Below are positions 13,381 to 18,408 of a stretch of DNA of 64,000 bases, piece after piece. Origin of the DNA: a bacterium (GTDB lineage Bacteria; Krumholzibacteriota; Krumholzibacteriia; LZORAL124-64-63). Positions within the stretch are counted from its first letter, which is position 1. Each line of letters opens with the position of its first letter. A model generated the notes under the pieces. The model did no database searches and had not been told where the DNA came from. It was given only the letters and a program-made list of their open reading frames with translations. Location of the stretch: contig JANOEP010000027.1 in assembly GCA_031441465.1 (NCBI GenBank), positions 1 to 64,000 of the forward strand, written 5' to 3'. The translations under genes and the position numbers were made by a program.

Positions 13381-14475
13381 TCAGAACTGGGCGCGCCAGC
13401 GGCGGTCGAGCACGCCGCCCGGCTGCACGCCCAGGGCCTCGAACTCCGCGAGCACCCGGTTGATCAGGCGGGCCTTGTCGGCGAGCGGCAGGAACGCGCT
13501 CTTGAAGCCGTCGAGCAGGATCTTGGTGACCTGCTCCACGCTCAGGGCGTAGTGGGCCACGGCCAACTCCAGTTCGTGGGTCATCGTGGTGCCCGACACC
13601 AGCCGGTTGTCGGTGTTCAGGGTGACCCGCAGCCCCTCGTCCAGGAAGCGCTTGATGGGATGGTCCGACCAGCGGGCGATCGCCCGGGTCTGCATGTTGC
13701 TCGCGAGGCACACTTCCACCGCGATGCGGCGGTCGTTGACCCACTGCATCAGATCGGGGTCGCGGACCAGGTTGGTGCCGTGCCCGATCCGGTTGGCGCC
13801 GCAGTAGTGGATGGCCTGGTGGATGCTCTCGGGGCCGAACGCCTCGCCCGCGTGCACCGTGACCGGCAGGTTGTGGTTGAGCACCACGAAGAAGGCCTGC
13901 CGGTGGTCCTTGGCGGGAAAATCCTTCTCGGCGCCCGCCAGGTCGAAGGCCACCACGCCCCGCCCCTTCCAGCGCACCGCCAGCTCCGCCAGTTCCACCG
14001 ACGAGGCGGGCGAAATGTGTCGGATCCCGCAGATGATCTGCCCGGTGACGATGCCGTAACGCCGGCGCGCCAGGTCGAGGCCGCGCTGCACCGCGGCGAC
14101 GATCTCGTCCAGGGTCAGCCCCCGCACCGTGTGCAGCATCGGCGAGTAGCGCACTTCCATGTAACGGATGTTCTCGCGGTGCGCGTCCTCGGCCAGTTCG
14201 AAGGCGATCCGTTCGATGTCGCCGGCGTGCTGCATGAGCTGCAGGGTGATGTCGAAGACCTTGAGGTAGTCCTCGAGGCTCTCGCACTGCTCGCCCACCT
14301 CGCAGACCGCGCGCACGTCGTCGTCGTCGCGGAAGGCGAAGGGCAGGTCGTGGCGCGCCGCCAGTTCGCGGACCGTGGCCGGGCGCAGCGAACCGTCCAG
14401 GTGGACATGAAGGTCGGTCTTGGGGAGGGCGTGCAGGAGTTGGCTGGTGGCCCTGTCGGTCACGTCGGTCGTCAT
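13381..14475 (-). CDS. add: Adenosine deaminase
   Basis: PKTDLHVHLDGS, YMEVRYSP, FDLAGAE, TVHAGE, RIGHG and LNTDN. Confidence 0.93.
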   Translation of the reverse strand: MTTDVTDRATSQLLHALPKTDLHVHLDGSLRPATVRELAARHDLPFAFRDDDDVRAVCEVGEQCESLEDYLKVFDITLQLMQHAGDIERIAFELAEDAHRENIRYMEVRYSPMLHTVRGLTLDEIVAAVQRGLDLARRRYGIVTGQIICGIRHISPASSVELAELAVRWKGRGVVAFDLAGAEKDFPAKDHRQAFFVVLNHNLPVTVHAGEAFGPESIHQAIHYCGANRIGHGTNLVRDPDLMQWVNDRRIAVEVCLASNMQTRAIARWSDHPIKRFLDEGLRVTLNTDNRLVSGTTMTHELELAVAHYALSVEQVTKILLDGFKSAFLPLADKARLINRVLAEFEALGVQPGGVLDRRWRAQF

Positions 14476-14510
14476 CGCGATGCTCCTGTCGAACACCCGG
14501 GGGTCATAGC

Positions 14511-14549
14511 ATCCTGGGCCGGGGACCCCTTTGGGACCCGGCCCAGGAT
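14511..14549. terminator. 13-bp perfect GC hairpin without a U-tract, between the candidate RNA and add
   Basis: ATCCTGGGCCGGG-N13-CCCGGCCCAGGAT. Confidence 0.55.
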
Positions 14550-14816
14550 AGAAAGCGCCGATGCGGGCGATGGTCCTCCAGGCCTGAAGGCGACTCATTT
14601 CCCCAGGCACTGATGCCGGCCGCTCCGCAGCCACGAGTCAAGCTGCGTGGGACCGCACCGACCCTGTGCTGACAGGCTGGGCCTTCAGCGAATGATGATA
14701 CCTCGCCACCAACCCGAAGGCAACCCGTAGGTTGTGACGGCGAAATTGTCCCCGGCCGGACTCGTTCTGTCACCCGGGCCTGGACCTTGGACTTTCGGAC
14801 CGGCAGCCTCTTTCCC
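14550..14816 (-). ncRNA. Candidate ~267-nt structured RNA of unknown family
   Basis: Nested end-to-end stems with G-U pairs that work only on the minus strand, C(UACG)G and C(UUCG)G tetraloops, and a possible 7-bp pseudoknot. A -10-like TAAGAT ends 6 nt before the 5' G. Confidence 0.6.
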
Positions 14817-15189
14817 GATGGAATCTTAACTGTCATGAACATAAAGTCTTATCCGGTGAGCGGCTCCACGCCCGCCGCCGATACTGCCTGGGTTCGACTC
14901 GCCGCGCCCCTTCCGGCGGCGAGCCTTCCGTCCCTCCTCACGATTCGAGCGATCCGACTTCCTGCCGAGTCTGCCGATCGTGAGACCGTCACTGCCGCGG
15001 CCGACCGGTCGAGCCCGATGCGCCGTGCGTTCGCTGCTTGTCCGCTCGCGAATCGCCTGGCCTGGACGGTGTGACTGCACTTCCTGATCCCAGGGACAAT
15101 CTCCCGGTCACAACCTGGACAACACCCTGGTGAAGCAGTATCTTCCATTCGCAGCGATGGACCCCCACCGCCCCGAAAGGAGCGCGAGC

Positions 15190-15987
15190 ATGCGTTCGCT
15201 CCCGAGTCCGACTCGGCCCCTCGCCGGTTTGGTCCTGATGGCGTTGCTCCTGGGCCTGGCGCCCTCGGTTTCCCACGCCCAGGACCCGGCCGCCGCCGCC
15301 GCGCCCGCCGACAGCGTTCAGGCCCCGGCGCCCACCCGGCTGCGGCACCCCTCGCTCCTGGCCGCCTCGGCGTCGTTCGTCCATCTGCTACCCCTGCACA
15401 TCCTCAAGGAGAATGTCGCCGACATCAACGACCTGACCACGGCGGGTACGGGGGTCATGGCCGACATCCGGGTGAACGTCCTGGACGGACTGGCCCTCTC
15501 GGTCGGCGGCATGCGCGGCGGCTTCGGGCTGCGCGACAACAAGCCCGGCGAGATGTCCGCGATCAACGAGCGGTTCGTCGACAGCGACCCCATCACTCCG
15601 GACAACTACCTCCGGCTCGACGGCGTCTTTTTGAACGTCACCGCGTACCTGGGCAACAAGATCACGCCCAACTCCCGCTTCAACCCCTACATGCGGGGCA
15701 GCGTCCTCTACTACGACTGGGCCCTGCACGAGGACGGACGCGGCAGCGACGTCGTCACCTACCAGGACCAGGCCCTCGAAGGCCAGAACCTCGGCTTCGG
15801 CGCCGGTTTCGGCACCGAGTACCGGTTGAACTCACGGGCGAACCTGGACCTGCAGTTGCTCTGGGGATACGTCCTGACCGGCGACGAGATCAAGTGGGAG
15901 GGCCTGCAGTCGCCGTTCAACGAGAGCTACTACTGGACGAACACCCACTTCTGGAACCTGTCGCTGGGACTGGTGATCGGGATCTGA
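15190..15987 (+). CDS. Outer-membrane beta-barrel protein
   Basis: Signal peptide (..SVSHA|Q), alternating beta strands (FNPYMRGS, GFGAGFGTEY) and a terminal strand WNLSLGLVIGI. Confidence 0.7.
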   Translation: MRSLPSPTRPLAGLVLMALLLGLAPSVSHAQDPAAAAAPADSVQAPAPTRLRHPSLLAASASFVHLLPLHILKENVADINDLTTAGTGVMADIRVNVLDGLALSVGGMRGGFGLRDNKPGEMSAINERFVDSDPITPDNYLRLDGVFLNVTAYLGNKITPNSRFNPYMRGSVLYYDWALHEDGRGSDVVTYQDQALEGQNLGFGAGFGTEYRLNSRANLDLQLLWGYVLTGDEIKWEGLQSPFNESYYWTNTHFWNLSLGLVIGI

Positions 15988-16063: not shown

Positions 16064-17344
16064 TCAGGTGCCCGCGGAATAGTCGTCGGCGTAGAGGACC
16101 TGCTCGTCGGTCAGCTTGTCGAGCGACATGCCCATGGTGCGCAGCTTGATGCCGGCGATGTACTGGTCCTGCGTCTCGGGGATGTCGTGGACGTCGGCGG
16201 CGAGGCTGCCGCCCTCGTGCGCGAGCCGGACCATGCTCAGGAACTGGTTCGCGAACGACATGTCCATGACCTCGCTGGGGTGTCCCTCGGCGGCGGCCAG
16301 GTTGACCAGGCGGCCCTGCGCCAGCAGGTAGATGCGCCGGCCGTCGCGCAGGGTGTACTCCTCGCAGTTGTCGCGGATCTCGCGCTTGCCGGTCGACAGC
16401 GAGGCGAGGTCGTCGATGTTGATCTCGCAGTCGTAGTGGCCGGTGTTGCAGACGATGGCGCCGTCGCGCATGACCTCGAAGTGCCGCTTGACGATGACGT
16501 CCTTCATCCCGGTCGCGGTGATGAAGATGTCGCCGACGGCGGCGGCCTCGTCCATGGTCATGACCCGGTGGCCGTCGAGGGTCGCCTTCAGGGCGGCCGT
16601 GGCCTTGATCTCCGTGGCGATGACGCTGGCGCCGAGGCCGGACGCGCGCATCGCGCAACCCTTGCCGCAGTGGCCGTAGCCGGCGACGACGAAGTTCTTG
16701 CCGGCCAGCAGCACGCTGGTCGCACGGATGATCCCGTCGAGGCTGGACTGGCCGGTGCCGTAGACGTTGTCGAAGTCCCACTTGGTCTCGGCGTCGTTGA
16801 CCGCGATGACCGGGTACTTCAGCGCACCGTCGGCGGCCATCGCGCGCAGGCGGTGGATGCCGGTGGTGGTCTCCTCGGTGCCGCCGACGATCCCCCCGAT
16901 CAGGTGCGGGTGGCGGTTGTGGACCGAGAAGATGAGGTCGGCGCCGTCGTCGAGCGTGAGGGTGGGCTTGAAGTCGAGGGTGCGGTCGATGCACCAGTAG
17001 AACTCCTCGACGTTCATCCCGTGCCAGGCGTAGATCGAGATGCCGGCGGCCGCCAGGGCGGCGGCCACGTCGTCCTGCGTGGACAGGGGGTTGCAGCCGC
17101 TCCACGAGATCTCGGCGCCCGCGGCGAGCAGGGTCTCGATCAGGACGGCCGTCTCCTTGGTCACGTGCAGGCAGCCGGCGATGCGCATGCCCTTGAGCGA
17201 CTGCAGCCGGGCGTGCTCCTCGCGCAGGGACATCATCACCGGCATCCGGCTCTCGGCCCAGTCGATCCGGCGCCGCCCGGCCGCGGCGAGGCCGGGATCG
17301 GCCACCTTGCTGGGAACGGCGCCGGCATGCTTGTTCGTCATCAT
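16064..17344 (-). CDS. ahcY: S-adenosylhomocysteine hydrolase
   Basis: CLHVTKET, NPLSTQD, DDGAD, EETTTG, FDNVYGT, GYGHCGKG and GRLVNL..GHPSEVMDMSF. Confidence 0.96.
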   Translation of the reverse strand: MMTNKHAGAVPSKVADPGLAAAGRRRIDWAESRMPVMMSLREEHARLQSLKGMRIAGCLHVTKETAVLIETLLAAGAEISWSGCNPLSTQDDVAAALAAAGISIYAWHGMNVEEFYWCIDRTLDFKPTLTLDDGADLIFSVHNRHPHLIGGIVGGTEETTTGIHRLRAMAADGALKYPVIAVNDAETKWDFDNVYGTGQSSLDGIIRATSVLLAGKNFVVAGYGHCGKGCAMRASGLGASVIATEIKATAALKATLDGHRVMTMDEAAAVGDIFITATGMKDVIVKRHFEVMRDGAIVCNTGHYDCEINIDDLASLSTGKREIRDNCEEYTLRDGRRIYLLAQGRLVNLAAAEGHPSEVMDMSFANQFLSMVRLAHEGGSLAADVHDIPETQDQYIAGIKLRTMGMSLDKLTDEQVLYADDYSAGT

Positions 17345-17361
17345 CGTCCTCCTCTTGCGGG

Positions 17362-18408
17362 TCAGTGCGGGACGGGTCCCGCCTCGTCGGTCGCGGATGG
17401 GGCGGCCGCGGCGGGAGTCTTCTCCCCCACGGCCAGGAACACGTCGGGCCAGACCGCGCCGCGGTCCTGCAGGCCGGGCGGCAGGGAGACCCGAGCCAGG
17501 TCGATCTGCGCCGGACGGCGCACGAGGTAACGGCGCGGGGCGAGTGCGTGGCGCGCGAAGAACGCCAGCATCTCCTCGCGGGAGAAACCGAGCCACTGGT
17601 GGGCCAGTTCCTCGCGCATCCACTGCAGATTGTGGCTCGTGAAGGCCACCACGACCACCTTGCCGCCGGGGCGCACCACGCGGGCCATCTCGCTCACGGC
17701 CTGCCCGGGGCTGGCAACGTGGTGCAGCACCATCGAGCAGTAGGCGGCGTCGAAGGCGCCGTCGGCGAACGGCAGAGCCTGGACGTCCGCGCTCCGGAAC
17801 CGGACGCCGGCGATCTGCTCGCGCTCGCAAAGCTGGCGTGCGCGCTCGAGCATCGCCTCGCTGGTGTCCACGGCGGTGACGGTCGCGCCCGTTCCCGCGA
17901 GCAGGGGCAGCAGGGCGCCCGTGCCGGTGCCGATGTCCAGGACCGCGAGCCCGGGCGGAACCAGGGCCGCCACGGCGCCGGCCTGGATGTCGGGGGCCTC
18001 GAAGGCGGGGCGGATCTGGTCCCAGGCGCCGGCGATCCCCGCGAAGAACTCACCCGTGCGGCGGTCGCGGTCGGCCAGCACGCGGCGCAGCGCCTCGTCG
18101 TCGCCGGCGGCCTCGGGCACTCGGCCCGCCGAGGCGAGGACGGCATCCAGCAGGCCCGCATCGGCGCCCAGGGCGGACCGGTCGGCCAATCCGTACCAGC
18201 CCCAGGTCCCGTCCTTGCGATGGCTCAGCCAGCCCGCGTCACGCAGGACGGCCAGGTGCTTCGAGACGCCGGGTTGGCTCAAGCCGAGGATCTGCACCAT
18301 GTCCTGGACGGTCAATTCTCCCCGCCCGAGCAACCGCAGCAGCCGCAGCCGCGTCGGATCGCCGACGGCCTGGTACATGGCTGCAGGGTGCTGGAATTGG
18401 GTGACCAC
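17362..18408 (-). CDS. sahR: ArsR-HTH plus SAM-methyltransferase fusion regulator (SahR-like)
   Basis: DPTRLRLL..SQPGVSKHL ArsR domain fused to LDIGTGTG..LPF..FD..MVLHH..VVRPGG, directly upstream of ahcY. Confidence 0.82.
   Translation of the reverse strand: MVTQFQHPAAMYQAVGDPTRLRLLRLLGRGELTVQDMVQILGLSQPGVSKHLAVLRDAGWLSHRKDGTWGWYGLADRSALGADAGLLDAVLASAGRVPEAAGDDEALRRVLADRDRRTGEFFAGIAGAWDQIRPAFEAPDIQAGAVAALVPPGLAVLDIGTGTGALLPLLAGTGATVTAVDTSEAMLERARQLCEREQIAGVRFRSADVQALPFADGAFDAAYCSMVLHHVASPGQAVSEMARVVRPGGKVVVVAFTSHNLQWMREELAHQWLGFSREEMLAFFARHALAPRRYLVRRPAQIDLARVSLPPGLQDRGAVWPDVFLAVGEKTPAAAAPSATDEAGPVPH

Follow-up and report, generated by a model that had tools for sequence, protein, structure and literature searches.

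Adenosine deaminase genes (add) are under the control of the purine riboswitch in some bacteria, as in Vibrio vulnificus, where an adenine riboswitch precedes add. Few new riboswitch classes are found today, and poorly sampled lineages supply most of them. Here we describe a structured RNA element encoded on the minus strand just upstream of add in a metagenome-assembled genome (MAG) of the Krumholzibacteriota (GenBank assembly GCA_031441465.1). The stretch analysed, referred to below as the window, comprises 64,000 nucleotides (nt), positions 1 to 64,000 of contig JANOEP010000027.1. An earlier note on this DNA, made from the letters alone, had proposed an RNA of about 267 nt within positions 14511-14828, being either a stand-alone noncoding RNA reminiscent of the 6S and Ms1 RNAs or a new cis-regulator of add. 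Comparison with related genomes revealed a shorter, conserved and covarying leader RNA, restricted to one bacterial family save for one weak match and almost always placed directly before add. We consider it probable that the element is a new riboswitch-type transcription attenuator of add, most likely of a metabolite-binding class not yet described, and we regard it as a new class among regulators of a known kind.

By function and topology, the purine riboswitch (RF00167) appears to be the closest analogue. Both are 5' leaders before an adenosine deaminase gene, both form a three-way junction with two hairpin arms, whose loops can pair in the purine riboswitch and may do so in the present element, and both apparently control a downstream purine gene. 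Unlike the purine riboswitch, the present element has a core of 100-130 nt rather than about 70, a composite P4-P3 arm with internal loops and other conserved nucleotides, and its likely output in most members is termination by the closing helix, P1, itself. The S-adenosylhomocysteine (SAH) riboswitch (RF01057) belongs to the same metabolic neighbourhood, the removal of SAH and of its product adenosine, whereas the present element precedes add rather than ahcY or metH and is separated from ahcY by a divergent gene. The covariance models of these two families do not match the element. A precedent is provided by the nadA motif, or NAD+-I riboswitch, at first an orphan motif, which is reported to occur upstream of one gene in one phylum only and to have proved to be a riboswitch (PMC6859854). 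It resembles the present element in being a structured leader of narrow lineage and essentially a single gene, and differs from it in sequence, fold, gene and phylum, which are unrelated. The 6S and Ms1 RNAs are of similar length, highly structured and single-copy. Unlike them, the present element has no rod with a central bubble, is confined to one family and forms part of the add transcription unit. In addition, Ms1 is described for Actinobacteria (PMC9130861); the present element comes from a MAG of the Krumholzibacteriota.

The earlier proposal that the RNA belongs to no known family was borne out by Rfam 15. The 64-kb window gave no match at the gathering score, the best E value within positions 14300-15100 was 3.9, to unrelated families, and six diverse homologous loci gave no match at E values up to 1. 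No paper linking Krumholzibacteria with riboswitches was found in the literature searched; the supplementary tables of motif surveys might list the element. Riboswitch phrases naming adenosine, inosine, hypoxanthine or deoxyadenosine occurred in no title or abstract found, and papers on adenosine deaminase with orphan riboswitch candidates concerned other motifs only.

To define the element, 80 loci encoding Add relatives were collected. Two conserved P1 strands, UCGAUGCGG and CGCCCGCAUCG, were present 60-115 nt apart just upstream of add at 67 of the 80 loci, and were absent from five loci of other phyla (53-56% Add identity). The sequences formed two subgroups, the larger B and the window's A, together with a few variants, and two covariance models were used, R1, built from the group-B alignment, and R2, for subgroup A. 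Whole-genome searches with both models were made blind to add. R1 matched 37 of 151 genomes of the phylum, once each, 36 of them among the 60 genomes of the window's family; the 90 genomes of the other eight families yielded one weak match. That match, at G140:C49:18473-18589 (33.4 bits, E value of 1.8e-4), is in another family of the same class. R2 matched 43 of 91 genomes of the window's family, with one match each, including the window's own genome, except for two in G001. This MAG, of the same genus as the window, carries two copies of the leader and add start (C33:21055-21164 and C8:126439-126547), each like a different species, which could reflect a mixed bin or a duplication. Taken together, R1 and R2 found the element in 22 of the 28 genera searched in the family.

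Nearly all matches were tied to add, as seen in three independent samples. All 30 of the R1 matches collected, and 27 of the 29 R2 matches, lay directly upstream of add on the same strand. Of the two R2 exceptions, one came from a 72%-complete genome in which no add was found, its contig being short; the other was in G010, considered below. A pattern scan of metagenome contigs gave at least 120 matches, of which 80 loci were collected; 20 of these matched R1, only those 20 were used, and 19 of them preceded add. The remaining 60 were model-negative, the pattern being too loose, and the 17 loci without add that were inspected lay mostly inside G+C-rich coding sequence. One of the 17, L218, was a genuine instance. 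The earlier note had asked whether homologues always precede add; almost all of them do, G010 being an exception.

The element contains a conserved, strand-specific structured domain whose helices are supported by covariation. When RNAalifold was applied to a raw MAFFT alignment of all groups, only P1 and fragments were recovered, and the structure was therefore built by hand on a homogeneous subgroup and refined with covariance models. The starting point was a MAFFT alignment of 32 group-B sequences (A4), which was not fitted to the structure. It supports a P1 of 10 pairs, a P2 of 11 pairs with a conserved 7-nt loop, and an arm composed of P4a, P4b, a purine-rich internal loop and P3, the last capped by a loop that always contains GAGUCGC. 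In this alignment 93.3% of the cells pair, compared with 38-48% when the 3' partner is slid by 1-3 columns. Both sides change in 22 of the 46 pairs (P2, 11/11; P4b, 5/6; P3, 6/9). None of 500 shuffles reached the observed values, although related sequences are not independent and such shuffle controls overstate significance. In A4 no variation is seen in P1, P4a or the loop-loop pairs. R1 gave 74 matches in the 80 sources, 3 of them spurious, and in the R1-fitted alignment (73 distinct rows, including the 3 spurious ones) 91.1% of the cells pair against 38-47% when slid, with both sides changing in 36 of 41 pairs. For subgroup A, fitted with R2 (22 distinct rows), the corresponding values are 86.5% against 33-50% and 21 of 32 pairs; both fitted alignments lean towards their models. 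The strand is indicated by many G-U pairs and by the model scores, which are 122-132 bits on the forward strand against 16-20 bits on the reverse.

The features of the locus are listed in Table 1.

Table 1. Positions of the leader RNA, its promoter and its neighbouring genes in the window
Feature	Positions	Strand	Remarks
Sigma-70-type promoter	-35 TTGCCT 14723-14718; -10 TATCAT 14700-14695	-	17-nt spacer; G before the -10 box; from promoter scan
P0, 5' hairpin	14668..14689	-	GCUGA-A-GGC, loop CCA, GCC-UG-UCAGC; sequence and length differ between genera
Conserved core, aptamer-like three-way junction	14558..14661	-	P1, P2 and long P4-P3 arm; matched by models R1 and R2
P1, closing helix	14661-14653 with 14566-14558	-	
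P2 hairpin	14626..14647	-	stem 14647-14642 with 14631-14626; loop 14641-14632 with invariant GACUCG
P4-P3 arm	14567..14623	-	P4a 14623-14620/14570-14567; P4b 14617-14616/14573-14572; P3 14608-14601/14589-14582
P3 apical loop	14590..14600	-	GAGUCGC motif (GAGCCGC in L019)
Terminator-like hairpin	14511..14549	-	AUCCUGGGCCGG...CCGGCCCAGGAU, 13-15 bp; starts 9 nt after P1; tail in genus GCUAUGAC
add (adenosine deaminase)	13381..14475	-	Pfam PF00962 A_deaminase, E 2.6e-97; ATG at 14475; Shine-Dalgarno AGGAG 14487-14483
285-aa secreted protein, conserved	15130-15987	+	divergent to the RNA-add unit; between ahcY and add
ahcY (S-adenosylhomocysteine hydrolase)	16064-17830	-	

In agreement with the earlier note, the stretch 14511-14828 folds better than its dinucleotide shuffles (z of -4.17; 0/100 as good), and positions 14505-14692 do likewise (z of -3.70; 1/200 as good). 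The window's core scores 22.5 bits with R1 and 97.5 bits (E value of 4e-19) with R2. It measures 104 nt, within the range of subgroup A (about 100-110 nt); cores of subgroup B measure 110-130 nt. P1 is paired in 99.5% of cells, and double-sided changes are seen in 2 of its 9 pairs in the window's subgroup and in 6 of 10 when all groups are considered. P2 corresponds to the CGCAGC/GCUGCG hairpin seen earlier, which proved to be conserved and covarying in relatives, with 5 of 6 pairs changing on both sides in the subgroup-A alignment (A7). In the same alignment double-sided changes affect 6 of 8 pairs of the P4 helix and 8 of 9 pairs of P3, and within the genus one G-to-A change in P3 is matched by a C-to-U change. 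P4b has merely 2 canonical pairs in the window's genus and is weak there, so that the layout between P4a and P3 is uncertain in the window. Upstream of the core, P0 shows compensatory changes, judged by eye on alignment A2, such as CUG/CAG to UUG/CAA in L073; in this comparison it takes the place of the CCUGU-CAGC-ACAGG hairpin first drawn.

The earlier note had also paired the P2 loop with positions 14765-14759, where the sequence is not conserved. A complement to the P2 loop is found instead in the invariant P3 loop, GAGUC (14596-14592) matching GACUC (14639-14635); the match comprises 5 pairs in subgroup B and as many as 7 in subgroup A, and a kissing-loop pseudoknot is possible on this basis. 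These loop-loop pairs (helix 3) are paired in 99.4% of cells and 4 of the 5 never vary. Since both loops are invariant, covariation cannot test the pairing.

The conserved region begins well downstream of the start first proposed. When 41 related genomes were searched at the DNA level, each of the six others in the genus was found to contain the stretch, at 93-95% identity and over query positions ~70-318 only. Among seven same-genus homologues the alignable part was 14757-14505 only (~94% identity), and in an eight-sequence alignment 14700-14511 was almost invariant, with 14828-14758 and even the first add codons variable. The 5' part of the RNA as first drawn (14816-14758) is therefore not conserved, and the RNA is shorter than the ~267 nt claimed. 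The promoter scan likewise did not call the TAAGAT sequence from which a start at G14816 had been deduced. It found 4 sites where 0.1 were expected, among them the promoter with TTGCCT and TATCAT boxes at 14723-14695 (Table 1). Relatives share this arrangement: a TTGNNN-17/18-GTATNNT promoter scoring at least 8 of 12 was present in 60 of 70 distinct upstream regions, 31-77 nt before P1. Transcription of the leader most likely starts near G14689, as predicted from this promoter, which would give a leader of ~180 nt up to the hairpin end at 14511.

Most of the outer and inner helices first assigned to the RNA did not survive the comparison. GGAAAG/CUUUCU, GCCGGU/AUCGGC and UCCAGGCC/GGCCUGGA are fully paired in the window only; in the genus comparison, which covered these three helices and not GGUGAC/GUCGCC, the 3' halves were invariant and the 5' halves drifted without compensation. 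For UCCAGGCC/GGCCUGGA, examined by hand, 6-7 of 8 pairs are kept in other species, and this helix is weakened rather than abolished. Two of the 3' halves have other partners or places, AUCGG being part of the conserved P1 and GUCGCC part of the invariant P3 loop. The inner helix UUCGCCGUCA/UGGUGGCGAG, with its two enclosed hairpins, overlies the -35 box and spacer and keeps 5-7 of 10 pairs in the genus, and the switch pairing CUGAAGGC/GCCUUCAG involves non-conserved sequence. One of the two enclosed hairpins, CAACC-UACG-GGUUG (14718-14740, minus strand), is an imperfect palindrome over the -35 box that is kept in the genus, with an uncompensated change in three species; rather than forming an RNA hairpin, it could serve a DNA-binding regulator as its operator.

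On its downstream side the element is close to add. In the window 36 nt separate the hairpin end from the add ATG, and in L045 P1 ends ~20 nt before the start codon. With so short a gap no separate add promoter fits, and all transcription of add must cross the element. The earlier proposal of a cis-regulator of add is thus supported by the shared strand, by a conserved promoter of its own, by the lack of room for a second promoter and by the presence of the arrangement across most genera of one family.

Two alternative terminator-like features follow the constant core. Among 67 distinct cores, a U-run of at least 5 occurred within 14 nt after P1 in 41, a separate hairpin with the base AUCCUG...CAGGAU occurred in 14, and no core had both. 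Neither platform was seen in 12 cores, at least 5 of which were misplacements by the fuzzy pattern; L033 has a short hairpin of its own followed by U7. In subgroup B the AUAA after P1 pairs with a U-rich flank before P1. This lengthens the helix as far as the U-run, and the folded domain is then shaped like an intrinsic terminator whose loop is structured and very large. For the subgroup of the window, the separate hairpin begins ~9-12 nt after P1; its base is conserved and, judged by eye, its upper stem covaries. This is the 13-bp hairpin that had been noticed following the original structure, and it is present at 14549-14511 and conserved and covarying in relatives. Its tail in four related genera is UUCUUUCU. 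Small hairpins in group B that would sequester the outer part of the P1 5' strand were also considered and rejected as weak or non-conserved.

We suggest the following mechanism for such an attenuator. Transcription would start at the conserved promoter near 14689, and the element would form the 5' leader of the add mRNA. The first ~130 nt would fold into the variable P0 and then into the three-way junction of P1, P2 and the P4-P3 arm, in which the invariant P3 loop may pair with the invariant P2 loop. This junction domain would be the sensor that controls premature termination of transcription before add. In the commonest subtype, P1 would extend to the edge of a U5-9 run and the fully folded domain would itself serve as the terminator stem, and in the window's subtype the separate strong hairpin downstream of P1 would be used. 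Metabolite riboswitches typically show such a size, a three-way junction, a loop-loop contact and a fixed core around which platforms are swapped. A metabolite is favoured as the signal because of the size and complexity of the core, its invariant unpaired nucleotides and loops, its single metabolic target and the exchange of platforms around it. Since P1 would itself be the terminator stem in most members, we favour a direction in which the folded and bound state would be off.

The gene context points to purine nucleosides or bases of the adenosine-to-inosine step, or SAH, as candidate ligands. An off switch would suit a product-side signal, for instance inosine, hypoxanthine or guanine. An on switch responding to adenosine, deoxyadenosine or SAH would suit the clearing of adenosine released by SAH hydrolase and would need a mechanism that was not found. 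We tentatively raise the more specific possibility of a new class whose ligand has no known natural riboswitch (inosine, adenosine or another product of the SAH-adenosine-inosine route) and whose closing helix acts as the terminator stem. If this were true, the clearance arm of the methyl cycle would gain its first RNA sensor, from a phylum that is known through metagenomes alone. Were the ligand a nucleoside of the adenosine-inosine step, the element would fill a gap among purine-sensing RNAs and link RNA control to the disposal of adenosine from SAH hydrolase. The case is unusually clean, with strong covariation, a single well-understood target gene, a conserved promoter and one core combined with two different platforms; with this target gene, only a few cheap compounds need to be considered as ligands, and the hypothesis is testable with synthetic RNA without culturing.

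Several observations weigh against this interpretation, in addition to the dependence among related sequences mentioned above. Some concern the link to add. In G010, add is 2.6 kb downstream of the RNA, with two genes of the same strand in between. The add orthologues of G012 (L270) and G016 (L271), with 68-70% identity, have a promoter-like site and a short leader without the structured RNA; from these sequences the element appears to have been lost or never gained in the two genera and would be dispensable or displaced in some lineages. Others concern termination in the window's subtype. The hairpin at 14549-14511 was not called by the terminator scan, and its tail in the genus is poor in U (GCUAUGAC, 2-3 U in 8). 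No conserved anti-terminator was found in this subtype by eye or in minimum free energy folds, and the hairpin is so stable that every fold contains it. Candidate anti-terminators pairing the 5' arm of the hairpin with the P1 3' strand, with the CUGGA internal loop or with sequence before P1 were all weak or non-conserved. The loop-loop pairing, finally, consists of invariant sequence without compensatory change, and the U-to-C change in the P3 loop of L019 is uncompensated. As to the G010 locus itself (L145, on G010:C36), the first intervening gene looks LysM-like by eye, P1 and the U-run after it are retained in the RNA, and the same arrangement is seen in the metagenome locus L218.

RNA libraries provide a further, weak line of evidence. 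Six metatranscriptome runs hold part of the stretch, and four were examined, as contigs. Contigs from relatives cover 14496-14736 (X15), 14545-14707 (X16) and 14506-14678 (X20, a 178-nt contig), so that the core is weakly attested in RNA libraries of three studies, contigs being unable to prove transcription, transcript ends or level. Neither the difference in depth in X16 (14.9 for the leader contig and 6.17 for the add contig) nor the uncovered parts were counted as evidence. Also counting against the proposed mechanism, the X15 and X16 contigs extend upstream of the predicted promoter into sequence unlike that of the window. This could reflect upstream transcription or DNA carry-over and, unless it is carry-over, does not fit a clean start at 14689. 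Among DNA libraries, the share of the sampled words of 13900-15100 is ~17% in about a dozen runs, which come from groundwater, soil, sludge and sediment. This share is about the size of the invariant core, which suggests that the core is more conserved than the flanking genes; it was not used as evidence of habitat.

The main rival to a metabolite-sensing attenuator is a protein-dependent one, in which the junction and loops would bind a dedicated RNA-binding regulator or a moonlighting enzyme that decides termination at P1 or the hairpin. All of the structural and contextual evidence is equally compatible with such a regulator. The invariant loops and the near-invariant sequence of P1 could be protein contacts, no anti-terminator was found in the window's subtype, and a single-gene regulon is as compatible with a dedicated RNA-binding protein as with a metabolite, which is a further point against our reading. 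We nevertheless hold this alternative to be unlikely, given that no candidate gene for an RNA-binding protein is linked among the neighbours, that no known protein-binding leader family in Rfam matches, and that the size, junction, possible loop contact and platform swapping resemble those of metabolite riboswitches. If a protein were the signal, the element would still be a new attenuator family.

A minor rival, which we judge to be quite improbable, is a stand-alone trans-acting small RNA of ~130-180 nt that would end at P1 and the U-run, or at the hairpin, with add expressed by incidental read-through. The element is bracketed by a promoter and a terminator-like 3' end, the 178-nt RNA-library contig spans 14506-14678, and add does not directly follow the RNA in G010. 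Fixed neighbours are also a feature of some small RNA genes, such as 6S next to ygfA. Against this, the absence of room for a separate add promoter places the element necessarily in the add transcript, nearly all matches are tied to add, and contigs cannot show transcript ends. A 6S- or Ms1-like RNA polymerase-binding RNA is very unlikely, close to negligible, despite the similar size of about 180 nt and the lack of any Rfam 6S match anywhere in the window's own genome, where another copy would have argued against a divergent 6S here, since the comparison gives a three-way junction and not the rod with a bubble first proposed, the 5' half of that rod is not conserved, the 6S model (RF00013) finds no match in the region even at an E value of 10, a housekeeping 6S should be phylum-wide rather than confined to one family (36 of 60 genomes against one weak match in 90), and Ms1 belongs to a different lineage.

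The leader and add lie, in a host genome of high G+C content, among genes for a secreted beta-barrel-like protein, ahcY and UbiA. The gene at 15130-15987 encodes a protein with a signal-peptide-like N terminus and a weak Pfam match to an outer membrane beta-barrel (E value of 1.8e-4, below the cutoff); its identity is 82-86% within the genus and 52-63% in other genera, and in several genera it keeps the same place relative to the RNA and add. Because this conserved gene is divergent and lies between ahcY and add, add is not cotranscribed with ahcY and forms its own transcription unit. The nearness to ahcY remarked upon earlier is a conserved neighbourhood, ahcY being encoded on the leader's strand and 1.4-1.9 kb upstream of it, both in the window and in four of the five other genera checked (G013, G023, G075 and G107), and it does not extend to a common transcript. 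In the fifth, G068, the sole match was a 43%-identical gene located far away. Two open reading frames were rejected as spurious. That at 14504-14842 (minus strand, 112 amino acids), over the element, belongs to no Pfam family, and its substitutions follow helix covariation and are not codon-like; that at 14787-15074 (plus strand) belongs to no Pfam family and had no tblastn match in 12 related loci. Directly upstream of ahcY, the gene at 17362-18408 (minus strand) encodes an ArsR-type helix-turn-helix fused to an S-adenosylmethionine-dependent methyltransferase domain and may be a methylation-linked regulator or enzyme.

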